From an uncultured bacterium (lineage in GTDB: Bacteria; Planctomycetota; UBA8742; UBA2392): DNA of 64,000 bases. Position 1 is the first letter of the stretch. Each line of letters begins with the position of its first letter. Shown here in pieces: positions 1 to 16,527 of this stretch. A program made the translations under genes and the position numbers. The stretch lies in assembly GCA_938014885.1 (NCBI GenBank), contig CALLQI010000011.1:51344-115343 (forward strand). The letters run 5' to 3'. The notes beneath the pieces were generated by a model. The model worked only from the letters and a program-made list of their open reading frames with translations. It searched no databases and was not told the DNA's origin.

Positions 1-3000
1 TCCAGGCGCACGCAGTCGGCGCCTGCCGTGACGTCGCTGGTCTGGATCGAGCCAATGCCGTCATTGATGCGCAGGCCGTTGCCGGCAGCAGACAGCGTGC
101 AAGCCGTCAGCGTCAGCGTAGAGGTCGGGCCGATCGACTCGGCGGCGTCGCCGGCGCTTGAGTCGACGGTCGTGCCACCGCTCACGTGCAGCAGGGCAGC
201 GGGTCCGGAAGCGTCTGTCTCCGCGCGCAGGGCGCGTGTTGCTCCGGCGTAGCTGCCGTTGCTGACGTTCGCGTGAACCAGGTTGGTCGGGGCACCACCG
301 CCGATGTCGGCGCAGCGCACCAACAGGGCCGTCGTGCAACTGGTCGGGCCTGCGGAGCCTATAGAGACGTTTATCAGGTCGATGATGGAGTCATTGGAGG
401 CAGGACCCTGAAGCAAGTCCGAGCTCTCTAACAGGATACCGACGTTCGCGCCGTCAACACTGCCGCCTGAAACATTCAGGTTTGAGGTCTCGATGTCCCA
501 GAAGTACATGCCACGGTCGAAAGTGCCGCCATTTGCGGAGAGCACGTTGCCGGTGAGCTGAACGTCCATGTCGTTGTAGATGCCCTGCAGGGTGATGCCA
601 ACGCCACCGCTGCCGGTCGCGGCGATGGTGTTGTTGCTGACTACGATGGGCGAAATGCTTGTCAGGTCGAGCGCCACGATCTCGATAGCCACGGAGTTGG
701 CATTCACGTCGATGCTGTTGTTCGAGATGTTTGTGGGGGCTAGACGGTCATTACTGAAGTTCGCGACCTGGATGCCGATGGCGCCGGGGAACGTGAGGAT
801 GCGGTTACCGGTGATGTCCAGGAAGGCGTCATCCTCACAACGCACCGCGCTCAGGTCGCAGTTGGCGAACAGGCTGTTGCTCAAGGTGCCGACTGTGGCA
901 CCAAAACTGTTGGCTACCGCTACGCCACACTCGGCGAAGTTCTCGAATACGCAGTTCGTGACCAGCAGGCCAACGACATCGATCGTGTCGTTGTTCACGC
1001 CGCTGCGCGCATCGCGACCGGTGCCGAACAGCGGCCTGTCACCTTCGAAGGCGAAACCATCAATGGAGACGTCGTCGGAAACAGTGAACAGGTCGTCGCT
1101 CGCGGGGGATGCCCCGGTGGCGACCACGATCGTCTCGTTGGCGGGAACCAGCGGCAGGCGGCCCGCGCCCACGTTGCCGAACTGAGCGCCCCGCATGGTC
1201 AGCGGGCGATACACGTCAACCAGCTCGATGAACGTGCCGACGTCAACTTCAAGCGTGTCATTGTTGTTAGCCTCGTCCACACCACGCTGGATGCTGCCGC
1301 TGTTCTGGGTCACGAACACGCGGCCCGATTCAATGCGTACGAAACCGCGCGTGGCGTCGTCAATCGCGTGGGTCATGCGGTTCTCGACCTCGAAACCCGC
1401 GAAGGGGCTGCCGCTGACGCGCGGCAGGGTCAGGTCGAACTGGAACGCGTTTTCGTACCAATCGTTACCCGTTGCATCGACATCGGCCGTGCCCGGGAAC
1501 GCGGTGAAATAGCCGCCGCCGGTAGTGCGAATGATGAAGGTGTTAGCCGCGGTGCCGCTGAGGTCAAGACTGCCGGCCTGGAACACGAAGCACTCAAAAT
1601 TGCCCGAGTCGCTCTCGCGAACAGTTGTACCGGACAAAGATGCAGAGCCGCCCAGGATGTCGATCGTCACGTCAGCGCCCACCTGGTTGATGTCGCTGTT
1701 GTCCAGGATCACCACCGCGCCGGTGTCGATGACGACGGCGCGCGCGGCGGCATTCTGCGTGACAGTCAGGCCATCAATACTGACGTTCGTGTCCAAGTAC
1801 AGCGCTGTCTGCGGCGTCTGCTGGTCAAGGGTGCCGCCCTGCACGATAACCGTGCCGCTGTTGACCCGCAGGGCCGAGGCGCCGTTGCCGGTCAGCGTGG
1901 CGCCGGCTGTCAGGTCGAGGGTAACGTCGCGGGTGATGATCGCGCTGCCGTAGGTGCCGCCTGCAACGATCACCGTGCCGCCGTCCGCCACGTGGTCCAA
2001 ACCGGCCTGCACGGTGTCGAAGGCGTCGATGCCGTAGCGATGCGGTGCCAGGGGCGACGGGGCATTCGGGTCGTCGCCGTAGTTGAGCGCCGAGAACGCC
2101 AAGTCAACGTAAACCGTCTGCTGCCTGACCGCGATGATCAGCAGCGCCGGCGGCGACGAAGTGTCCGCACCGCCGTTGGCAGTGCCGCCGTCGTCCGACA
2201 GCGTCACGTCGTACACGTAGATGCCATTCGAGCCAACGGGATCGATCGTGAATGTCAGGTCGCCGGTGGTTTCGTCAATGTCCGGCGCGGCCGTGAAGTT
2301 CACGGTACCCACCGACTGCGCAGGCAGCTGGGTCAGGTTGAACGTCAACACCTGGCCGCTCTCGTCCGCGGGGCCCTTGCTGATGGCCGTGGCCCATGCC
2401 AGGTGGGTCTGTGGTCCAGCCGTGGGCGCCAACGGAGTCAGGTTCACGCCCGGCGTGAAGCTGGGCGCGTCATTGACCGCAGTTACATCAACGCTGACCA
2501 GCACGGGGCTGGCCGAGGTCTCACTGGGTAGGGGGGTACCGTCGTCAAAGCATTCCACGCTGAAGGCCGCAAGTGCGCTTCCGTTGGCATCCGCTGCCGG
2601 GGTCCAGCGCAGGGTGTCGGCGCTGGTGACGGTCTGCGGCAGAACGACCGCTGCAAAGACGCTCGTTGTGCCTACGTCGATCAGCAGCGTGCCGCTGCTG
2701 ACGGCCGTGACGCGGAAGCCATCCACGCTACCGTCAATGTCCGAAGCGCTGGTCGTGGTGACCAGGTCGCCAAACGTGATGTCGATGGCGGTATCTTCGT
2801 TGGTGGCGCTTGCCAGCGTACCGGCTGACAGAGTCGGCGCGTCATTGACGGCGTTGACGTCAACGCTGATCAGCACAGCGCCGGCAGAGGTCTGGCTGGG
2901 GGCCGGGGTGCCGTTGTCGAAGCACTCGACGCTGAAGGCTGCAAGCGCGCTGCCGTTGGCGTTGGACGCCGGGGTCCAGCGCAGGATGTCAGCGCTGGTG

Positions 3001-5762: not shown

Positions 5763-6746
5763 CTACTTGAAGTAGCTTGAGGCCTTGATTGCTTCCGCCA
5801 ATTCCTTGGCTTTTTCTGCCGCCCGGGTGCCCGTGTTTTTCTCGTAGAACTTGCCCAAGGCTGATGCCTTGGCGTCTTTGCCCTTCACCTTCTTGTTGGC
5901 GGCAAGGGTCTTGGCCAATGCCTCTTCAGCCTTCATCTCTTTCTTCACGTCGGCGTCCTTTTGCATTTCCTTTGAGTCCGCGTCGGCCTTGGTGCCTTCT
6001 TCACTGCCCTTGAAGCGCGCGGCGATGCGGGCGTAGAAGGCGGCTGCATCGGTAAAGCGCTTTTCGTCGCGGGCCTTGGCGGCCTCATCATTCCACTTCT
6101 TGGCCAGCGCGTTGCAGCGCTCGACGATGTACTTGGCGTCTTCGTCGGCCTCGTTGGCGGCAAGTGCCTCATTGGCGAGCTGGCGGGCCTTGGTGTAGTC
6201 GCCCTTGCCGAACGCTTCGGCGGCCTTCTTGGCGCTTTCGCCGACTTCGGCCTTGCCGAGCCCGGGGTAGGCGACCTTGGCCAGCGATTCTTCGATGAAC
6301 TTTTCGTACTCGCCGTTGCCCTGGTACACGCAGCGGCCAAAGCTGTTGATCACGTACACGATCGGCATGCTCTTGGTGTCGTAGCCCGCCAGAGTGCTTT
6401 CCGAAGCGGCCACGAAGGGGACCTTCCAGCCCCACTCGCCGACAAAGGCTTCCATCTCAAGGGTGCTCATGCCTTCGCCTTCCACGGCGAAGAAGTGCAC
6501 GCCCTTGTCGCGGTACTTTTCCCACAGTTCCTGAAAGTGCGGCAACTGCCGCAGGCAGGGGGCTCAGTTGGGGCCCCAGGTCTTCATTACAATGATCTCG
6601 CCCGCCAGATCGGCCTTTGCGGTCGGGCCGTACTGGTTGACGATGCCCTTCATGTCGAAGTCGGGCGCGTCCTGGCCCGCAATTTTCTGCGCGCTGAGTG
6701 CGCTGCCGGCCAAGGCCAGCGTCATTAGCAATGCGAAGCGGAACAT
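5763..6746 (-). CDS. Exported TlpA/ResA-like thioredoxin-fold oxidoreductase with an in-frame UGA (6564-6566) at the first Cys of CxxC (U-A-P-C). It is a candidate selenoprotein. The C-terminus has a Lys/Ala/Glu-rich helical extension.
   Basis: ORFs 6564..6746 and 5763..6545 share one frame and are split only by the TGA. The junction reads ...IIVMKTWGPN-U-APCLRQLPHFQELWEKYRDKGVHFFAV.... ATG 6746 is preceded by AAGGAGAG. The N-terminus MFRFALLMTLALAGSALSAQ is a signal peptide. Confidence 0.7.
6530..6555 (-). promoter_or_regulatory. SECIS-like hairpin downstream of UGA 6564-6566.
   Basis: The mRNA folds as CCUG-CGGC-(AGUU)-GCCG-[CACUUU]-CAGG. The apical loop begins 16 nt after the UGA and has G as its second base. 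Confidence 0.4.
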
Positions 6747-6864: not shown

Positions 6865-8514
6865 TTACTCGTAGAACACTACAACTGACTCTACCACATG
6901 GCTGGCCCAGTCTTTGCTCTCGAAGTCTTCGCTTACGTACTCCAACTCGAGTTCGCTGCCGGGTTTGAGCTGCTTCGTGATGTCGATTTCCCAGACCCGG
7001 CCGAAGCTGCCGGGGCCCCAGCCCGCGCGGTCGTACTTCCACGTTCCGAACTGCGGGCGCCACGGGTTCAGGTAACAATCCGTCGTGTGCAGCTTGTTGA
7101 TGTGCAGCACGTCGCCCACGCGCACGGTGCGATCCAGCGGCTTGAACTCAAGCACGCCATGCCCGGTTACACAGATGCGCAGCCTGGCGCTGCGGGCGTT
7201 GCCGGGCACTTTGATGCGCCGCACGCCGTAAACGGCCTTCACGCTTTCGGCGCTGTTGAAGTTGGCGGTGCCGCGCCAGACGTTGACCACGCCGGCTACC
7301 TTGGGCAACGCGGCCACATCGGCGGGCTTGCGGTAGTAGTGGAACTCGATGTCAAAGGTGAAGCCCTTGCCGACGTTGGAGCCCATGCTGGCGAAGATGG
7401 TGCGCTTGCCGGTCAGCAGGTGGCGCAGGTGGGTGACGTCGCATACGTACTCATAGCTGACACCCCAAAGCATGAAGGGCGTGAGAATGCGCGCGAGCTC
7501 AAAGCTCTCTTCACCGTCGCGCACGAGAACCTGCCCCAAGCGGTCCCACTCGTCGCGTTCGACCATCGGCTTCAGGCGCAGGGTCATCAGCACGCGCTCG
7601 AACTCGACGCCGGCGGGCAGCAACTCCACTTCGCGCTCGACGGCGGGGCCGCGGGTGGCGTGCCAGGCGCTGCGCATGGCTTCCACCGTGATCGGGCCCG
7701 GCGAATTGGCGGCCGCCGCGCCGAAATCCACGTGCAGGCTGTCGATGCTGCATGCGCCGCCGTCGGGCCCATAGGCGCCGACCGCCGCCCGCGATTCATA
7801 GGGCATCAAGTGCGGCAGAAAGTGCCGGTCGTACACACTTTGGCCGCCGACGCCGACGGTGACTTCCGCGCCGCCGGTGACGAAATCCAGCTTCACGCTC
7901 AGCACGCAAGCTTCACCGGTGGCGAACTCAGGCGTGCAGAACACATTTGCGAGCTCGCGCCCGTCCCAGTGCAGGCTGACTTCGCGCTGAGGCCGATCAT
8001 GGATATTCCCCCACTGGTTGAAGGGGTCTTCCGTGGGCGGGTTGTGGGTGTCGAGCGCCACGGCGAAGCTGCCCCACAGGTTGGGCTCGTCCCACAGGGG
8101 CTCGGCCGGTGTGGGGTCGCCGGGGAAGCCGCGCTGCTTATAGAGGTAAAAGGCCGCACCTTCGGCCGCAAAGTGGCCGGTGTGCAGCAGCATGAACGAA
8201 AGGCCGCGCGCGCCGGGCGTCAGGCGGAAGACCATTTCGGCGCTGATGCTGCGGCGTTCGCCGGGGATCTGCACCGGCCAGGCTGCGGAGTTGTTTTCAC
8301 CGCCGCCGCCGGACAGCAGATGCAGCTTGCCGTCGCGCACTGCCGGGGCCTTGCCTTCGGCGTGTTTGCGCAGGGTGTACCCGGGCTTTTCGGGTACCTT
8401 CGAGAAATCTTCGTGCAGGACTTGCGGCGGCGTTTCAGGCTTGGCCGGCGGGTCCTGGGCAGTGGAAAGGGCAGTTGTGGCAAACAGGCAACAAAGCGCA
8501 ATCGCGTAACGCAT
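6865..8514 (-). CDS. Secreted 549-aa protein. The N-terminal region looks lectin/LamG-like. The C-terminal half weakly resembles a PNGase F-type jelly-roll; function is uncertain.
   Basis: Long ORF with signal peptide MRYAIALCCLFATTALSTAQ and normal amino-acid composition. The overlapping + strand ORF 6898..8535 is an Ala/Gly/Arg-rich shadow. The domain guess rests only on remembered motifs such as ...KYDRAGWGPG.... Confidence 0.8.
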   Translation of the reverse strand: MRYAIALCCLFATTALSTAQDPPAKPETPPQVLHEDFSKVPEKPGYTLRKHAEGKAPAVRDGKLHLLSGGGGENNSAAWPVQIPGERRSISAEMVFRLTPGARGLSFMLLHTGHFAAEGAAFYLYKQRGFPGDPTPAEPLWDEPNLWGSFAVALDTHNPPTEDPFNQWGNIHDRPQREVSLHWDGRELANVFCTPEFATGEACVLSVKLDFVTGGAEVTVGVGGQSVYDRHFLPHLMPYESRAAVGAYGPDGGACSIDSLHVDFGAAAANSPGPITVEAMRSAWHATRGPAVEREVELLPAGVEFERVLMTLRLKPMVERDEWDRLGQVLVRDGEESFELARILTPFMLWGVSYEYVCDVTHLRHLLTGKRTIFASMGSNVGKGFTFDIEFHYYRKPADVAALPKVAGVVNVWRGTANFNSAESVKAVYGVRRIKVPGNARSARLRICVTGHGVLEFKPLDRTVRVGDVLHINKLHTTDCYLNPWRPQFGTWKYDRAGWGPGSFGRVWEIDITKQLKPGSELELEYVSEDFESKDWASHVVESVVVFYE

Positions 8515-8597
8515 GAGTATCCCGACGATGCTTGAAGTGGAGGTCCCGCCCCGTCATACGAACCACACGGGCGCGGGACCATGGAAAACGGCCTCAG

Positions 8598-9212
8598 TTA
8601 CTGCTGGTAGTTGGCCGGGCGCTTATAGGGCTTGATGGCAAAGACCTCGAGTTCGCCATCGGGCTCATAGCCGATGACTTCCACGTCCCACAGGCCGTTG
8701 TCGCGCTTGGGGCCCTCATAGATCAGTGAGGGCATCTTCACGCCCTGCAAGGTTGCGGTTTCGTCGGCGAAGTGGAACTCGCCCAGGATGCGCATCCCGG
8801 CAAGGCCCATGCCGCCGTCCTTGACCGCGGCGTGAATCGCGACCGGGTCAATGGCGTCTTCACGCTTCCACTCGAACCAGAGCACCTGGTCGTCCATGCT
8901 TGTCTGCACTGTCTCGCCGAACCGGCGTTGGAGTACGGACCGTACTCCGTCCACTCACTCTCATCACACTCAGCCGGCGACCAGCAGGTAGATAATCGGC
9001 GCGGGCGGCTTGATTTCTGCGGTGCCCTCGGTGGTGGTCTTCGTGGTCGTTTTCGTAGTGTCGGTCGTGTCGGCGACCTCGGTCGCTGAGGCCGTCTCAT
9101 CCTGCCATTGCAACGCACGGCGTTTCTCGGCGGTGTCGAAGCCGCTGCCGATGTGGCACGACGAAGCCGCCAGGCACACCAGCGCCAATGCAGTAACAAG
9201 CATGAGCTTCAT
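8598..9212 (-). CDS. Lipoprotein reading frame interrupted by four in-frame TGA codons (8970-72, 8964-66, 8961-63, 8955-57), giving G-U-V-U-U-E-U-V. This is either a multi-Sec protein or two separate small genes (8970..9212 and 8598..8954).
   Basis: ATG 9212 overlaps the upstream gene's stop as ATGA. MKLMLVTALALVCLAASSC is a lipoprotein signal followed by a Thr-rich linker. ORFs 8970..9227 and 8598..8954 are in the same frame. A perfect hairpin follows the TGA cluster. Confidence 0.45.
8930..8948 (-). promoter_or_regulatory. Perfect 7-bp hairpin GGAGUAC-(GGUCC)-GUACUCC, located 13-28 nt after the four UGAs. SECIS-like.
   Basis: The + strand reads ggagtacggaccgtactcc, a perfect palindrome. 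The loop starts with GG. Confidence 0.4.
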
Positions 9213-10153
9213 GTCGTGAACCTCCATGCGAAGCTGAACCGGAATGATACCTCATCGCGCAGCTGTACGCCGTGAGTATCCGCATACACAGGAACGTCAA
9301 AGATCGCCTTTAGTTCAAACCACGGGCGCGGGTGCCACTGCACTTTGGGACTGGCGTAGATGCCCCAGCCGCCCGTGTGCTTTACCCGTACGCCGTCGTC
9401 GCGGTCGAAATCGCGCCAGTCAAACTTCGCGCCCAGGCTGACGAACATGGTGTTGCCGGGGAACTTTTCCTGGATCACGCGGTACTTCAGCTCGAACTCG
9501 TTGCTGAAGGCATCGCCAAAATCGTAGTCGCTGCCGCCCACGCCGACGCTGCGCCAATGGTATTGCGTCGCGATGATGACCTCCCAGCGATTGTCGCTGT
9601 AAATGCCCGCGTGCGACAGCGTCAGCCCGTAGCTACCGGTGCCAAGCTGCAAATCGGCCGGCACTTCTTTGCCCAGGCGCGATGCGCCGCTTTCGCCTGT
9701 GGGCAGGTCCACGATGATGCCCGCGCTCAGCGACGCGCCGCGCTGGCTGTCGTCGCCGGGCACCCACCACAGGTATCGCATGCGCGCACCCAGGCTGACA
9801 TCACCAAGGCCTCGTACGCGATCGGTGACGACGCGGTCTTCCACGTGCATACGGAATTCGCGCCAGATCAGCGGGATCACGGCTGAAACCGTCCACTCAC
9901 CGGGAATCACCCGCGGCAGGCTGTAATTCACGCCCAGCCCCAGCTGGTGATCGACCATGAACAGGCCGTCGCGGTTGGGCACCGGGCGGAAGTCTTCAAA
10001 CGTGCGCGTGGCAAAGCGGTGCCGGTGCAGCGCGTACATCTGCAGGCCGCCCGCGTACAGCGGTTCTGCCTGCACAAAGTTGTGACCGGCCTCCGGCTCA
10101 GCCAGCAGCGGGGTTCACAACAGGATCAGCACCAGCAGAAAGCAGGTACGCAT
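9209..10153 (-). CDS. Outer-membrane beta-barrel protein (MetA-pathway/phenol-degradation-like OMP family). An in-frame TGA (10115-10117) lies inside the predicted signal peptide.
   Basis: The 288-aa ORF 9209..10075 has alternating beta-strand character and a C-terminal ...SFRFSFAWRFTT, but begins at GTG without a signal peptide. The same frame upstream reads MRTCFLLVLILL-TGA-TPLLAEPEAGHNF-VQAEPLY.... The family assignment is by resemblance only. Confidence 0.65.
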
Positions 10154-10284
10154 CAGTCCACCGTTCTTGTACCCGCACCGCCCGCCATTGTGGGGCCAGG
10201 GGCTACCGGGCGCAATCCCTTGCAGGCGGCCGGGAATTTGCCAAAAGCTAGGGGCAACGGGGGTTGCCCGTACGGGAATACACC

Positions 10285-11511
10285 ATGAGCCAGACCCGCA
10301 TCCAGCCATCAGACCTTGACGCCGGCGAAGATATCGCGACGCGCACGATGGCGATCAATTTCGGCCCGCAGCACCCGGCCACGCACGGCACGCTGCGGGT
10401 GAAGATGCAGCTGCTGGGCGAAAACGTGGTGCACGCTGACCCTGAAATCGGCTTCCTGCACACGGGCTTTGAGAAGCTGGGCGAATACCACACCTTCAAC
10501 CAGTTCGTGTGCACCACGGACCGCATGAATTACATGAGCCCGCTGTGCAACAACTTCGGGTTCGTGCACGCCGTTGAGGAATTGCTGGACATTGAGCTTA
10601 CGCCGCGCTGCAAGTACCTGCGCGTGATCTTGTGCGAACTGACCCGCATCGCCGACCACGTCATCTGCAGCGGCCTGCAGGCCATGGACTTGGGCGCTTT
10701 CACGATACTGCTGTGGAGCTTCGTTGAGCGCGAAAAGCTGTACGACCTGTTTGAGATGGTCACCGGCGCGCGCCTCACCACCAGCTACGCCCGTGTCGGC
10801 GGCATGATGAAAGACGTGCCCGGCGAATTCGTGCCGCGCTGCCGCAAGTTCCTGCGCGAGTTCCCTCTCGCGATCAAGGAAATCGAGAAGATGCTGAACC
10901 GCAACCGCATCTTCCTTGACCGCACCAACAACGTCGCCGTCGTCAATGGTGCCGACGCGATCAGCCATGGCCTGACTGGCCCGTGCCTGCGCGCCGCCGG
11001 CGTGCCCTACGACGTGCGCCGCGCCCGCCCCTACTGGGTCTACGACGAACTCGATTTCGACGTGGTCACCCGTGAGGCCGGCGACGTGTTTGCGCGCTAC
11101 AAAGTGCGCATGGACGAAATGAAGGAAAGCGTCAAGATCATCAGCCAGGCCCTGGACCGCCTGCCGGGCGGGCCGGTGAACATCGACGACTGGAAGATCG
11201 TGCTGCCTGAGAAGGCTGCCGTGTACACGCAGATGGAAAGCCTGATCACGCACTTCAAGCTGATCATGAAGGGCCACGGCCTGAAGACACCGGCCAAGGG
11301 AAAGATCTACAGCTGCACCGAATCACCAAACGGCGAACTCGGCTGGTACATCGAAACGGACGGTTCCGCCGTGGGCTACCGCGTGCGTTGTCGCCCGCCA
11401 AGCTACATCAACTACGGCGCGATGCCGCAGATGGTGAAGGGCGGCTACATCGCCGACGTCGTGGCCTGTCTCAGCTCACTGAACGTCATCGCCGGCGAAC
11501 TGGACCGCTAA
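10285..11511 (+). CDS. nuoD: NADH-quinone oxidoreductase subunit D.
   Basis: MSQTRIQ...MAINFGPQHPATHGTLRVKMQLLGENVVHADPEIGFLHTGFEKLGE... is a typical NuoD (49-kDa subunit) sequence, ending ...SLNVIAGELDR. I chose the internal ATG at 10285. Confidence 0.95.
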   Translation: MSQTRIQPSDLDAGEDIATRTMAINFGPQHPATHGTLRVKMQLLGENVVHADPEIGFLHTGFEKLGEYHTFNQFVCTTDRMNYMSPLCNNFGFVHAVEELLDIELTPRCKYLRVILCELTRIADHVICSGLQAMDLGAFTILLWSFVEREKLYDLFEMVTGARLTTSYARVGGMMKDVPGEFVPRCRKFLREFPLAIKEIEKMLNRNRIFLDRTNNVAVVNGADAISHGLTGPCLRAAGVPYDVRRARPYWVYDELDFDVVTREAGDVFARYKVRMDEMKESVKIISQALDRLPGGPVNIDDWKIVLPEKAAVYTQMESLITHFKLIMKGHGLKTPAKGKIYSCTESPNGELGWYIETDGSAVGYRVRCRPPSYINYGAMPQMVKGGYIADVVACLSSLNVIAGELDR

Positions 11512-11575: not shown

Positions 11576-13993
11576 CTATTGCACGCGCACCACCAGCAAC
11601 TCACAGGGTTCAAGCGTCAGTGGCAGTGGTGCGGACGCGCTTCCCAGCACCGTGCCCGTGGCCGGATGCGTGACGTTGCCAGACGCCCCGACGAGGTCAA
11701 TCGCCACCGACTTGCTGGTTACTCCAAGGTTCACGATTGCGAAGTATGTGCCGTGTGACGGCGTCTGGATGCGGCGCACCACGACTTCGGGATCCGCACT
11801 GGCGCCGGCCACAACCGTGCTGGGCAGCGCGGGCAGGCTCAGGTAGTTGGCAAAGAACTTCCGGGCGTAGACGGGAAAGCCGTGGTTCCAGGTGTTGCTG
11901 CTGCAATAGCCCAGGTAGTTGGGGTCGCCGAGGGCCACGGCGCGTGCCTCAAGCAGCATGGAAAACGGCCCGGCGCGTTCGACGTCGGCGGCAAGGTACC
12001 CCAGCGGGGTGTTTTCCCATTGCTCGTTGGCGGCAAAGGCATGGGCGTCTTCGTTCAAGCAATAGTGGCGGATACAGGCCAGGTCGTTCTGCGACCGGAA
12101 GCCGGACAGCGAAGTCTCAGTCAGCGAAAACGCGCGGTTCATCGTGTGCGTCAGGAACACGCCGTCCGTGGTGGCGTAATTCTGCGGGTCGGCCCACGGC
12201 ACTGAGTGGCTCCATTCGTCGGCGCCGTAGTCCATGAGCGAGGTTCGCATCGCCTGGTAGTACTCGTTGCCGCTGACCGTCGGGGCGTAGTCCTTGTGGA
12301 AGAACCAGTGGTTGTACGTGGTCTGCAGCGTGGTGCAGATCGGGCTCCAGGTCGCGGGGTCGTCGTTCACGATGTACTTGCTTGATCCCGGGAACGGCCA
12401 CCCGGGCTCCGAGTTATCCCACGTGAACATCACGTCGCAATCGCTGTGAATGTTCGAGCGCAGCCAGCTTTGCATGCCCAACAGGAACTCCCGCCGCTCT
12501 TCAAACCACCACTGGCAATAGTCCACGTACAACTGGCCCGGCGGTGTGGCCGAGCGCGCCGCACTTAGCGCTGCCAGCGATGCGCTGCCCGCGGTGCGCC
12601 CGGTGTCGGACTCAAATTCGGCGCGGCATGCGGCCCTGAAACTGATCGGCATGGCGCTTGGCCGTGCCCTGAACCAGATCGCCGGGAAGTCCACCTGCGT
12701 CTTGAACGGCGACAGTGTCTCATCCAACAGCCGCGTGGCATCGGCCAGGGTGTTGGTCGTGGCACCGGTGATGTCGGCGTTGTACAGCTCAACCCACCAG
12801 AAGCCCGTGTAGCTGTTCGAATTCTTCATGGCCAGGCAGGTTTTCTGGGGCCCGATGCCCCCCGGGCCGGTGCTGCCGTAGTACTCGTAATATGGGATCA
12901 CGTCGAAACCATAGCTCTGGCACAGGGTCACGATCTCGCTCCAGCGCTGCACCAGGTTGGGGCCCGCCGGGTTCCACCAGTTGGCATCGCTGACCGGCCA
13001 CCCCTGATTGTGGCCGAACTCGAGCAGGTCTTTGGCAAACGTGCGGATGCCCAGAAAGCGCATCAGCTTCAGCTTGTGTTCGTACCAGTCCTGGTCGTTC
13101 TGCATCCCCCACTCGGTGGCCGGGTCACCCATGTACGAAACGACGCCGTCAGACATTTCCTCGCGCCAGAACACGTGGCGCTTGGGCAGGCCCGCGGGCA
13201 GCGGGTTTGCGTTCAGGGTGATCGGGCTTGTGACCTCGTACAGCCGCAGCTTGCCCAGCGCGGCACCGGCATCGAGGGGGGCTTGCTTGGTGTCAAGCTG
13301 CATCACGATCACCTGAAAACCGTCGGCCGGGGTCTGGGTGCGCGCGTTGGTGCCGGCCGTGCCGCCGCCCGTGCCCTGGAAATCAACGTCGCGGGGCTGC
13401 CAGGTACCGGGGTAGCGCTCGTGCAGGTGAAAGTACTGAGTCCATTCTTTCCACTGTCCGCTCAGCGGCAGCGACAGAGATTCCGGCACTGAGTACACCC
13501 AGCCGCCGACCTGGTCGCCCACAGCCTGGCCGGTGCAGAAGCCGCGCGCCGTTTCCGCACCGCGGTTCAACACATACCATGAACGCGACGTGTCTTCCGG
13601 GTACTCCAGCTTGATCACGTAGGCCGCGCCGGCCTGCAACGACTTGCCCGCAGGCAGATTCTTGCCCACGGTGTATGAGACGTACTTGTACTGGTTGGGA
13701 ATCGGTGACAGCACCCGGGCCGATTGGCCCAGGATCGTCTGCACGGTCGAGCCGCCGGCCGGGTACTCGGCGAATGCGGCCGTGGCGGGCGGGTTGGCGC
13801 AATCAATGGTTTCGAGCAAGGTCAGCGAGCTGTCAAAGCCGGCGTAGTCCGGGATAGTGCCGGGCGTGCCACCGCCTCCGCCTCCGCCACCACTGCTGCC
13901 GCTTTCGCCACCCCCTCCGGCACAAGCAACGGCTGCAAACCCCGCGAAAGCTGCCACCATGAGCAGAACCAAGCAACGAACGAAGCGCGTCAT
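11576..13993 (-). CDS. Large lipoprotein (805 aa) of unknown function, Trp/Tyr-rich and possibly carbohydrate-active.
   Basis: ATG 13993 gives MTRFVRCLVLLMVAAFAGFAAVAC (lipobox) followed by a poly-Gly linker. It is a long clean ORF. I recognise no family motif with confidence. Confidence 0.8.
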   Translation of the reverse strand: MTRFVRCLVLLMVAAFAGFAAVACAGGGGESGSSGGGGGGGGTPGTIPDYAGFDSSLTLLETIDCANPPATAAFAEYPAGGSTVQTILGQSARVLSPIPNQYKYVSYTVGKNLPAGKSLQAGAAYVIKLEYPEDTSRSWYVLNRGAETARGFCTGQAVGDQVGGWVYSVPESLSLPLSGQWKEWTQYFHLHERYPGTWQPRDVDFQGTGGGTAGTNARTQTPADGFQVIVMQLDTKQAPLDAGAALGKLRLYEVTSPITLNANPLPAGLPKRHVFWREEMSDGVVSYMGDPATEWGMQNDQDWYEHKLKLMRFLGIRTFAKDLLEFGHNQGWPVSDANWWNPAGPNLVQRWSEIVTLCQSYGFDVIPYYEYYGSTGPGGIGPQKTCLAMKNSNSYTGFWWVELYNADITGATTNTLADATRLLDETLSPFKTQVDFPAIWFRARPSAMPISFRAACRAEFESDTGRTAGSASLAALSAARSATPPGQLYVDYCQWWFEERREFLLGMQSWLRSNIHSDCDVMFTWDNSEPGWPFPGSSKYIVNDDPATWSPICTTLQTTYNHWFFHKDYAPTVSGNEYYQAMRTSLMDYGADEWSHSVPWADPQNYATTDGVFLTHTMNRAFSLTETSLSGFRSQNDLACIRHYCLNEDAHAFAANEQWENTPLGYLAADVERAGPFSMLLEARAVALGDPNYLGYCSSNTWNHGFPVYARKFFANYLSLPALPSTVVAGASADPEVVVRRIQTPSHGTYFAIVNLGVTSKSVAIDLVGASGNVTHPATGTVLGSASAPLPLTLEPCELLVVRVQ

Positions 13994-14127
13994 AGGACGC
14001 TCCCTTCTGTTGCCCAGTTTGTGTGAAGGTGGCAATGCTATGTGCGGCCGCAGGAAGTGCAAGCCGTCACCAAGGTTTGACGCATGACCCTTTTCAACAG
14101 TGGGCCTGATGCTAGAAACTCGCGAGG

Positions 14128-14646
14128 ATGACAACGCAGACCACCACAACACTGAAGCCCGAAACCCTGGCCGCCATGGCGGCCCTGACCAAGCGCTTCC
14201 CCAAGCCCGACGGCGCGCTGCTGGCGTGCCTGCGCATGGCTGAACGCGAAGTCGGCTTCGTGAATGCCCATGTGTGTGAGCAAGTCGCCGGCGCGATCGG
14301 CATGGCGCCGGCCAAGGTGTGGGGCGTCGTCAGCTTCTACACGACCTTTCGCAAGGAAACTGACGGCAAGCACGTGATCTGGGTTTGCTCAACCCTGCCC
14401 TGCGCACTGCGCGGCAGCGAGAACGTGTTTGATTACCTGTCCGGCAAGCTCAGCCTCAAGAAGGGCGAAACCACGCCCGACGGCTTCTTCACCCTGCACA
14501 AGGCCGAATGCCTGGGCAGTTGCGACACCGCGCCCTGCATGCAGGTCAATGAAGACTACTACGAGAACCTGACCTTCCAAAAGATCGACCAGATCCTCGA
14601 CGACCTGCTCACCGGCAAGGTCCCCGCCCGCCACGTCACCCGCTAG
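14128..14646 (+). CDS. nuoE: NADH-quinone oxidoreductase subunit E (24-kDa, 2Fe-2S).
   Basis: ...VSFYTTFRKETDGKHVIWVCSTLPCALRGSENVFDYL...HKAECLGSCDTAPCMQVNEDYYENL carries the NuoE Cys motifs. Confidence 0.93.
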   Translation: MTTQTTTTLKPETLAAMAALTKRFPKPDGALLACLRMAEREVGFVNAHVCEQVAGAIGMAPAKVWGVVSFYTTFRKETDGKHVIWVCSTLPCALRGSENVFDYLSGKLSLKKGETTPDGFFTLHKAECLGSCDTAPCMQVNEDYYENLTFQKIDQILDDLLTGKVPARHVTR

Positions 14647-15474: not shown

Positions 15475-16527
15475 ATGAGAACTGCCGCTTTTGCTGCGCT
15501 GCTTCTGTTGCTCTGTGTGGATGCCGGTGCCCAGCGCCGTCAGGGCGGAAGCAGCCCGTTCACCGAGTTCCACAAGAAGTCTGCGCTGGCCAACGGGGCG
15601 GCCGCACCCGCGCTGCTGGCCCAGGACACCGATGGCAAACTGGTTGACCTGCGCGACTATCTGGGTCAATGGGTGTTCATCGAGTTCGGCAGCTACACGT
15701 GACCGCCCTGTGTGGCCCATTTCGGTGAAATGGAGAAGTTCGAAAAAGCCCACGGCGCGCAAGTCGCCTGCCTGTTCTTCTACACCAAAGAAGCCCACCC
15801 CGATGACGGCCCGGAAGACCGCAAAGACGCCGGCAGCACAGGCGGCTGGCGCATGAAGAACAACAAGATCCAGATTGACAAGCACACCAAGTACGCGGAT
15901 CGCCTGGATGCCGCCAAAGACCTGCGCAAGGCCGGCAAAGAAAAGTGGCGCGTGCTGGTCGATGACATGAAAGACACCAACCACGCGGCCTGGGGCAACC
16001 TGCCCAACATGGCGTTCCTGGTGGACCCGCAAGGGCGCATCCACCACAAATGGAGCTGGGTCGCCAGCAGCACAGGCAAGTCCAAGCGCAGCGGCGACGA
16101 CGGCACCAGCGACCTGTACACGCTGCTCAAGGCCGCCGGCGAGCTTGCGCCCTACACCGTGGCCGACGACCCGCAACTGCCGCTGCGCGACACGGTCGCC
16201 GGTGAATGGCTGCGCTACGGCGACACCACGGTCAAGTTCGCGCCGGCCGGCGAAGGCAAAGTGAAGCGCGACGACTCCGTGATTGAGCTGGCCCCGTTCA
16301 AAGCACCCGCAAAGCCAACCAAGGCCACACGCAAGGACTTCAAGTTGGGAAAGCACGAGCTGCCCTGCGTGGTGACTCAGACTGAAGAGGGCGAAATCTG
16401 GGTCTGCACCCGGTTGCCCGGCGACGGCGTCGTCAAGGTCGTCAAAGACGGCACGACGCTGCGCGAGCTGACCGACGCGGGCTTCACCGAAGGCAAGTCA
16501 TGCCTGGCCGAGTACAAGCCCGAGTGA
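15475..16527 (+). CDS. Exported deiodinase-like thioredoxin-fold protein with an in-frame UGA (15700-15702) in FGSYT-U-PPC. It is a candidate selenoprotein. An extra C-terminal domain of about 150 aa follows.
   Basis: ORFs 15475..15702 and 15712..16527 share a frame and are separated by one TGA. The junction reads ...GQWVFIEFGSYT-U-PPCVAHFGEMEKFEKAHG.... The signal peptide is MRTAAFAALLLLLCVDAGAQ, with GAGGGGA upstream of the ATG. Confidence 0.72.
15717..15733 (+). promoter_or_regulatory. SECIS-like hairpin CCAUUUC-(GGU)-GAAAUGG downstream of UGA 15700-15702.
   Basis: Perfect 7-bp stem with a GGU loop. The loop starts 21 nt after the UGA. Confidence 0.5.

Follow-up and report, generated by a model that had tools for sequence, protein, structure and literature searches.

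The DNA analysed was a stretch of 64,000 nucleotides (nt) from an uncultured bacterium (GTDB lineage Bacteria; Planctomycetota; UBA8742; UBA2392; GenBank assembly GCA_938014885.1, contig CALLQI010000011.1, positions 51,344 to 115,343), hereafter the window. Features are on its minus strand unless stated otherwise. Positions 9212..8598 contain two short open reading frames (ORFs), a lipoprotein leader ORF and an ORF of 118 amino acids (aa; ORF118, 8954..8598), which are separated by a cluster of four TGA codons. The segment was evaluated as a single putative coding sequence (CDS, 8598..9212) for a 204-residue lipoprotein with four selenocysteine (Sec, U) residues, based on in-frame continuity in the window and 14 related loci. 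The start codon ATG 9212 overlaps the TGA stop of an upstream gene for a beta-barrel-type protein (ATGA), ATG 9227 is a possible other start, and the CDS ends with TAA at 8600..8598. A lipoprotein signal peptide (MKLMLVTALALVCLAASS|C, 9156..9212) was assigned by pattern inspection only. Its lipobox Cys, residue 19, was invariant in all 11 aligned members; it is preceded by G, A or S at position -1 and, before that, by a hydrophobic stretch.

The cluster at 8955..8972 reads TGA GTG TGA TGA GAG TGA, corresponding to U-V-U-U-E-U, and aligns to the GMxCxxC loop of HMA domains. A first-pass annotation, made by a model from the letters and their ORFs, had placed four in-frame TGAs here. This was exact codon by codon: the TGAs occupy 8972-8970, 8966-8964, 8963-8961 and 8957-8955, all in the frame linking the lipoprotein ORF (from ATG 9212 or 9227) with ORF 8954..8598. 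Across the junction the minus strand reads ATC TAC CTG CTG GTC GCC GGC TGA GTG TGA TGA GAG TGA GTG GAC GGA, and after GAC it continues as GGA GTA CGG TCC GTA CTC CAA CGC CGG TTC GGC. The perfect hairpin described in the same annotation (H1, GGAGUAC-GGUCC-GUACUCC) is present at 8948..8930. Its spacing, given there as 13-28 nt 3' of the UGAs, had to be corrected, since H1 begins 6 nt behind the fourth TGA and 21 nt behind the first one. A second hairpin, which that annotation did not contain, lies at 8915..8927 over the codons R-R-F-G (H2, CGCCG-GUU-CGGCG), 32 nt from the fourth UGA.

The comparison set consisted of the window and 14 loci from Planctomycetota metagenome-assembled genomes (MAGs) and metagenomes, with 26-97% protein identity. 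The loci came from a search with the neighbouring 549-aa peptide-N-glycosidase F (PNGase F)-like gene, from a profile search, from look-ups of contigs and from a metagenome scan; the scan, run with a narrower alignment, yielded one locus. The search with the PNGase-F-like gene, which lies downstream, returned eight Planctomycetota MAG loci, among which L002 shares the layout of barrel gene, lipoprotein gene and small ORF. The junction DNA of L002 was near-identical to that of the window, and the two substitutions that set it apart, GTG>GTC and GGA>GGG, are both at third positions of codons in the joined frame. ORF118 had only about 10 relatives in an exhaustive HMMER search. Several of them start exactly at the ORF118 start, and the N-terminal helix (MSGVDTTLQRQLG...) was kept at about 40% identity. 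The fused protein as a single-sequence query gave no matches, probably because of the low-complexity words of its linker, and profile searches then succeeded.

All loci displayed the same layout of a leader ORF, one or more in-frame TGAs and a domain of about 100 aa. The leader ORF and the C-terminal ORF shared one frame in 15 of 15 loci (the window and the other 14), and the separator was always TGA, never TAA or TAG. The loop type G-U-V-U-U-E-U was found in 10 loci, with 18 nt identical in all. This 18-nt cluster had zero variable sites in eight loci and was also identical in L026 and L028; its identity in nine other independent assemblies shows that it is not an assembly artefact. The loop type G-U-T-U-GKEYAAL was found in four loci, where the Thr codon is ACA, ACC or ACG and the next Gly, Tyr and Ala codons vary at third positions. 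The loop type G-U-L-G-C, a classical UxxC motif, occurs in L010b, a tandem paralogue in L010. The third UGA of the four-UGA type aligns with the Cys of this U-L-G-C loop, which gives one natural Sec/Cys pair, and the first Sec (U1) is the sole invariant Sec among the loop types. On the L010 contig, a four-Sec copy (1674..2273, U-V-U-U-E-U) and a one-Sec copy (about 2350..2913) stand in tandem, the latter with U-L-G-C, a TTG start and the lipobox LTAC. These tandem paralogues suggest that the loop diversified through duplication.

The locus could also be read as two genes, a short lipoprotein with a fail-safe quadruple stop and a protein of about 99-118 aa translated from GTG 8954 or ATG 8897, the DNA between them having a regulatory or coupling role. 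All gene callers treated the family in this way, so that its database proteins are all 98-119 aa long, and ATG 8897 is conserved in the four-UGA type. The restart at GTG 8954, which the first-pass annotation had named as the alternative, was nevertheless contradicted. The codon behind the fourth TGA is GTG, GTC, GTA, GTT or ACA, and in 6 of the 10 four-UGA loci (GTC, GTA, GTT or ACA) it is no start codon. Judging by these substitutions, it behaves like a Val codon that is four-fold degenerate. In the two-UGA loci that position is GGY, and no start codon precedes the conserved helix.

Synonymous and non-synonymous differences were counted pairwise between the last TGA and the annotated ATG. The four-UGA type gave a synonymous:non-synonymous ratio of 83:162 in frame, compared to 15:232 and 56:205 in the shifted frames, and the two-UGA type gave 20:28 in frame, compared to 5:40 and 2:42. 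The helix in this segment (DGVRSVLQRRFG / SGVDTTLQRQLG / EYAALDESLRSRFG) was kept down to about 30% identity. Therefore, the coding signature and the missing start codon indicate that the segment is translated and that translation enters it from upstream through the TGAs. In-frame UGAs with coding-type conservation on both sides, one of the properties by which a bacterial selenoprotein gene is recognised, were thus found. Two genes would also have to account for 19-22 codons 5' of the annotated starts that are conserved as protein with synonymous variation, and for a frame kept in 15 of 15 loci, with a chance of (1/3)^14 if the loci are independent. Furthermore, fail-safe stops leave the UxxC and UxU variants unexplained.

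Other routes through the cluster were considered as well. Its other two frames (AECDESE... and LSVMRVS...) were unconserved beyond the 18-mer, and one of them stops early in L009; therefore, frameshifting was ruled out. A bypass of the T4 gene-60 type was rejected by inspection, as it would skip the conserved helix.

The residues on the two sides of the TGAs were related to HMA domains. The predicted strand beta1 (PIIYLLVAG, 8973..8999) forms the end of the annotated lipoprotein ORF and aligns to beta1 of the ATP7B HMA domains (VKLRVEG / FLQIKG); its Y, L and G are conserved in the family alignment. By profile match, a candidate HMA-like (ferredoxin-fold) domain comprises residues 73-136 (8805..8996) and spans the four UGAs. 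A profile of the fused family (11 proteins, U written as C) was compared to PDB sequences and matched HMA domains only, with ATP7B at 6.9e-11 summed over domains, the single HMA domains of 2ew9 (3e-4) and 2lqb (2.7e-3), and CopZ-type proteins more weakly. The alignment covers beta1 (IIYLLVAG vs VKLRVEG) and the loop (G-U-V-U-U-E-U vs G-M-T-C-Q-S-C) and extends up to helix 2. When U was masked as X, the ATP7B HMA domains were still the sole PDB matches (1.8e-3). In an hhalign comparison to seven aligned HMA domains, some of them taken from the PDB profile matches, the family gave over 63 columns an E value of 5.8e-7 and a probability of 92% with U as C, and 1.1e-4 and 56% with U as X. The loop register is ambiguous by two residues, with either U1..U3 or U2..U4 as the CxxC-like pair.

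ORF118 alone matched no Pfam family. Its AlphaFold model (predicted local distance difference test score 90.9) has the order helix-strand-strand-helix-strand with extra strands, and the model strands are at 54-63, 66-69, 87-94 and 103-109. In this model of ORF118 alone, the C-terminal part (8601..8804) is all-beta. As modelled, ORF118 is the HMA fold minus beta1, which is a central strand of a ferredoxin-like sheet. Over the whole domain, remote homology and the same fold order, beta-alpha-beta-beta-alpha-beta, were found, and the profile comparisons demonstrate a remote HMA relationship of the fused protein across the junction. The HMA profile match requires residues from both sides of the TGAs, and the second product of a two-gene arrangement would have neither a signal peptide nor this central beta-strand. 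Two genes are, in our judgement, very unlikely.

Two earlier proposals were thereby upheld. A lipoprotein leader had been proposed to be fused to an HMA/ferredoxin-like domain via the UGAs, which agrees with the frame kept in every orthologous locus, the coding-type evolution of the inter-ORF segment and the other selenoprotein genes in this genome described below. The U cluster had been proposed to sit in a CxxC loop, which agrees with the UxxC of the paralogue and the match of the fused profile to HMA domains across the junction.

The hairpins were analyzed for energy, codon usage and conservation. H1 reached -12 kcal/mol in the window (z = -2.8), with 2 of 200 shuffles equally stable, and its energies ranged from -10.5 to -12 kcal/mol; the loop opens with a G. 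The H1 20-mer is unique in the window, where 0.01 chance matches were expected. The stem is written in codons that are rare in the window (GGA, 2.7% of Gly; GTA, 7.2% of Val and used twice; CTC, 12.7% of Leu), which shows that it is under selection. It was kept in 9 of the 10 four-UGA loci with varying loops (GGUCC, GGGUU and AGGUC), and one A>G change in the stem preserves a G-U pair; L009 has a different hairpin at the H1 position. The two-UGA loci carry a hairpin in the place of H1, with compensatory changes, and in L010b the hairpin has 9 bp and a GUG loop, 24 nt from the UGA. Selection on H1 at the RNA level is established by these comparative data. H2 was conserved in nearly all members. 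The two-UGA type has it too, at a distance from the UGAs too great for the selenocysteine insertion sequence (SECIS) model, and either its amino acids or its RNA structure may be selected.

A consensus bacterial SECIS (bSECIS) has a loop of 3-9 nt, a stem of 4-16 bp, G in the first two loop positions, an energy <= -7.5 kcal/mol and a distance of 16-37 nt from the UGA (PMC13188914). H1 has all the structural properties of a bSECIS, and its loop lies 28-29, 22-23 and 19-20 nt from UGAs 1 to 3, within the range.

The TGA block and the hairpins could also be mainly an RNA or DNA regulatory element, such as an attenuator, a protein-binding palindrome or a selenium-sensing switch, with the full-length protein minor or non-functional under most conditions. 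Such an element would explain why the cluster is invariant in 10 loci even at two synonymous sites (GTG and GAG), and it would agree with a stem that is a near-perfect DNA palindrome and with the conservation of two hairpins. However, Rfam gave no family over 8300-9500, even at E = 10, and no U-tract lies behind the hairpin, by which an intrinsic terminator was rejected. The two-UGA and UxxC variants keep the frame and a hairpin without any sequence shared with the 18-mer, and the A>G change that preserves a G-U pair fits RNA, not a DNA palindrome. Regulation by selenium supply would be compatible with Sec decoding and is no true alternative. A mainly regulatory function is considered very unlikely.

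Two further split genes with in-frame TGAs were found in the window. The first (5763..6746, TGA 6566-6564) is on the same strand as the four-UGA gene, two genes downstream, and is annotated as ORFs of 60 aa and 260 aa. It encodes a secreted TlpA/AhpC-TSA-like protein (...KTWGPN-U-APC...) with a signal peptide, a thioredoxin fold and a long Lys/Ala-rich tail. The AhpC-TSA domain match (2.2e-9, above the gathering threshold) spans the UGA, a hairpin (UGCGGC-AGUU-GCCGCA) begins 10 nt after it, and both UGA and hairpin are conserved in the syntenic locus L026. The other gene (15475..16527, plus strand, TGA 15700-15702) encodes a secreted iodothyronine-deiodinase-like protein with a thioredoxin fold (...GSYT-U-PPC...). 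Its PF00837 match (1.6e-15, above the gathering threshold) spans the UGA, and a hairpin (CCAUUUC-GGU-GAAAUGG) follows with its loop 21 nt from the UGA; no orthologue was present in the related loci retrieved. A general UGA reassignment was rejected because TGA terminates ordinary genes; of the 20 genes with Pfam support or otherwise assigned with confidence, it ends 4, one of them the barrel gene just upstream. The use of Sec by this genome is established at the level of its gene sequences.

It is highly probable that positions 9212..8598 constitute one gene for an exported, lipid-anchored HMA-like lipoprotein whose four UGAs are decoded as Sec. The product would have about 204 residues, with a signal peptide ending in the lipobox Cys. 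The mature protein would consist of the conserved CHIGSGFDTAEKRR stretch, a low-complexity linker, the HMA-like domain with the loop G-U-V-U-U-E-U, and a small beta-rich C-terminal part. We infer that all four UGAs specify Sec, that H1 is the SECIS and that the protein carries a lipid anchor. The SelB / tRNA-Sec system would insert Sec at the four UGAs, with the hairpin at 8948..8930 serving as SECIS, possibly aided by the hairpin at 8927..8915. The protein would be exported and lipid-anchored and would work with the co-translated outer-membrane barrel from the gene just upstream. Its selenolate cluster would bind a soft metal, with Cu(I), Hg(II), Ag(I) and Cd(II) as candidates, or perform selenol redox chemistry in the envelope. 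Soft-metal binding or selenol redox in the envelope is likely; what is said of the metal ligand and of the barrel's role is guesswork.

Several observations weigh against this interpretation. The loop of H1 lies 13-14 nt from UGA 4, under the 16-nt lower limit of a consensus bSECIS. Thus, the earlier claim that the hairpin is a SECIS stood for UGAs 1 to 3, for which the spacing fits the published model, and not for UGA 4, which is too close. Four SelB-dependent events would have to occur in six codons, two of them adjacent, and no bacterial precedent was found in the literature searched. No selA, selB, selD or tRNA-Sec was present within the 64-kb window. Searches of 1.84 and 5.8 billion proteins returned no full-length homologue of the all-Cys kind, an unusual situation for a bacterial selenoprotein family, and the Cys-rich version (CxCCxC) for which the first-pass annotation had advised looking in relatives was not found. 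The HMA kinship is remote: one of the 11 fused members reached E 0.013 to PF00403, below the curated threshold, and the window fused protein had no PF00403 match. One member reached NCBIfam CopZ at 0.012, and no NCBIfam model fits the family in a scan of the 11 members. The ORF118 model alone gave no significant PDB match, only weak OB-like ones including CusF (E 5.4).

Some of these points would also agree with translated UGAs that are not, or not all, read as Sec, through near-cognate Trp, Cys or Arg, through a suppressor tRNA, or with only some of them as Sec (e.g., U1-U3). The fourth UGA is outside the canonical SECIS spacing, four successive Sec insertions with good efficiency are mechanistically demanding, and in mammalian selenoprotein P the misinsertion of Cys at Sec codons has been described (PMC4599804). 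However, TGA is a normal stop here, so a general suppressor is unlikely, and uninstructed read-through of four codons would give a negligible yield. The UGA positions align with the metal-binding Cys of HMA domains and one of them with a real Cys in the paralogue, ordinary UxxC selenoproteins occur in this genome, and Trp or Arg would be unsuited to a metal-binding loop. Decoding of some or all of the UGAs as something other than Sec is regarded as unlikely.

Within the preferred interpretation, a four-Sec lipoprotein, we hold with moderate confidence that one coding-region hairpin, perhaps with the second, lets SelB insert four Sec within six codons and gives a tetra-selenolate HMA-like site without an all-cysteine counterpart. 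If true, this would break the one-UGA, fixed-spacing rule drawn from E. coli.

The family was compared to known systems. With HMA domains (PF00403; CopZ/Atx1, MerP and the N-termini of ATP7B/CopA) it shares the order strand, G-x-x-C-x-x-C-type loop, helix, strand, strand, helix, and the Gly before the loop. MerP is also an exported protein. Unlike HMA domains, the family has four Sec (or UxU / UxxC) in the loop in place of CxxC, an extra beta-rich C-terminal part, a putative lipid anchor, an obligatory outer-membrane barrel partner and an invariant WFEW motif without counterpart in the HMA consensus, and its match is below the Pfam threshold. Predicted HMA-type or metal-binding selenoproteins with UxxC or UxxU (NF041115 with UxxU, NF045648 MbdU and the TIGR01525 cation ATPase) likewise have Sec in place of Cys in a metal-binding CxxC-type motif, and two close UGAs there presumably share one downstream hairpin. 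In contrast to the present family, they carry one or two Sec, and these three models were absent among the NCBIfam matches with E up to 1 for all 11 members.

The C-terminal region of selenoprotein P also has several close Sec in one secreted protein, and selenoprotein P is linked to selenium transport. Selenoprotein P is associated with heavy-metal binding as well. It has no homology to the family, and the eukaryotic SECIS in the 3' untranslated region acts with SBP2/eEFSec at a distance, so that no spacing problem arises. The SECIS of E. coli fdhF resembles H1: it is a hairpin directly 3' of the UGA inside the coding sequence, and its small apical loop exposes G and U, as does GGUCC here. 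The loop of the fdhF SECIS is GGUC. Unlike fdhF, the present locus would need one hairpin to serve four UGAs at 13-29 nt, and it has no bulged U.

By the current view, Sec insertion in bacteria requires a SECIS at a tight distance from each UGA, and multi-Sec proteins are hence rare in bacteria. A bacterial SECIS must adjoin each UGA (PMC13188914). A 2026 review lists in its table at most three Sec per prokaryotic protein, those cases being fusions, and the terms HMA, lipoprotein and Planctomyc- are absent from its text. In the literature searched, multi-Sec clusters were confined to eukaryotic selenoprotein P and archaeal FrhD/VhuD, and neither a denser Sec cluster in a bacterial protein nor a planctomycetal HMA selenoprotein was found. 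What sets the present arrangement apart is the packing of four UGAs, two of them neighbours, into six codons with one or two hairpins, and that the family has been observed in no form other than the Sec form. On the comparative evidence, the loci represent a new family of putative multi-selenocysteine HMA-like lipoproteins.

If U-x-U-U-x-U is served by one hairpin, the bacterial machinery would be processive over a range of 13-29 nt, and the locus would be a natural model from which multi-Sec proteins could be engineered. With four selenolates, an HMA site should bind soft metals very tightly. Its position beside an outer-membrane channel would point to an undescribed envelope system for the capture or detoxification of metal (or selenium). 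In every annotation the family is wrongly given as two hypothetical proteins, and the window has two more split selenoprotein genes; therefore, the selenoproteome of this lineage is likely under-counted.

The partner gene upstream (9209..10075) encodes a 288-aa outer-membrane beta-barrel-type protein and is translationally coupled to the lipoprotein gene. A barrel gene precedes the lipoprotein gene wherever upstream sequence exists (L025 has none), and these barrel-type genes encode about 250-330 aa across the loci. The orthologues in L015 and L026 match PF13557 Phenol_MetA_deg, and the window barrel protein has no Pfam match of its own. Right behind the lipobox Cys of the lipoprotein, residues 20-39 (9096..9155) contain the stretch C-(H/R)-I-G-S-G-F-D-T-A-E-K-R-R-x-L-x-W, which is common to most four-Sec loci and might be a contact site for the barrel protein.

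The PNGase-F-like gene (6865..8514) encodes a secreted protein of 549 aa whose C-terminal domain is of the peptide-N-glycosidase F type (PF09113, 4.5e-8). The gene is located directly 3' of the candidate selenoprotein gene in the window, L023 and L026 and farther 3' in L002. It is missing at that position in more distant loci and is therefore probably outside the core pair.

Redox genes were also observed near some loci. A divergent gene in L015 (1..1253, minus strand) encodes a 712-aa Thioredox_DsbH protein, and a response-regulator/pyridine-nucleotide-disulfide-oxidoreductase fusion lies downstream in L010 (4026..5672) and L023 (6142..6300). On the plus strand of the window, a nuoD-like gene (10264..11511) and a nuoE-like gene (14128..14646) are split by an 858-aa ORF on the minus strand (11576..14152) that matches no Pfam family. 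The nuo pair is adjacent in the syntenic loci L026 and L028, and the 858-aa gene therefore looks like an insertion.

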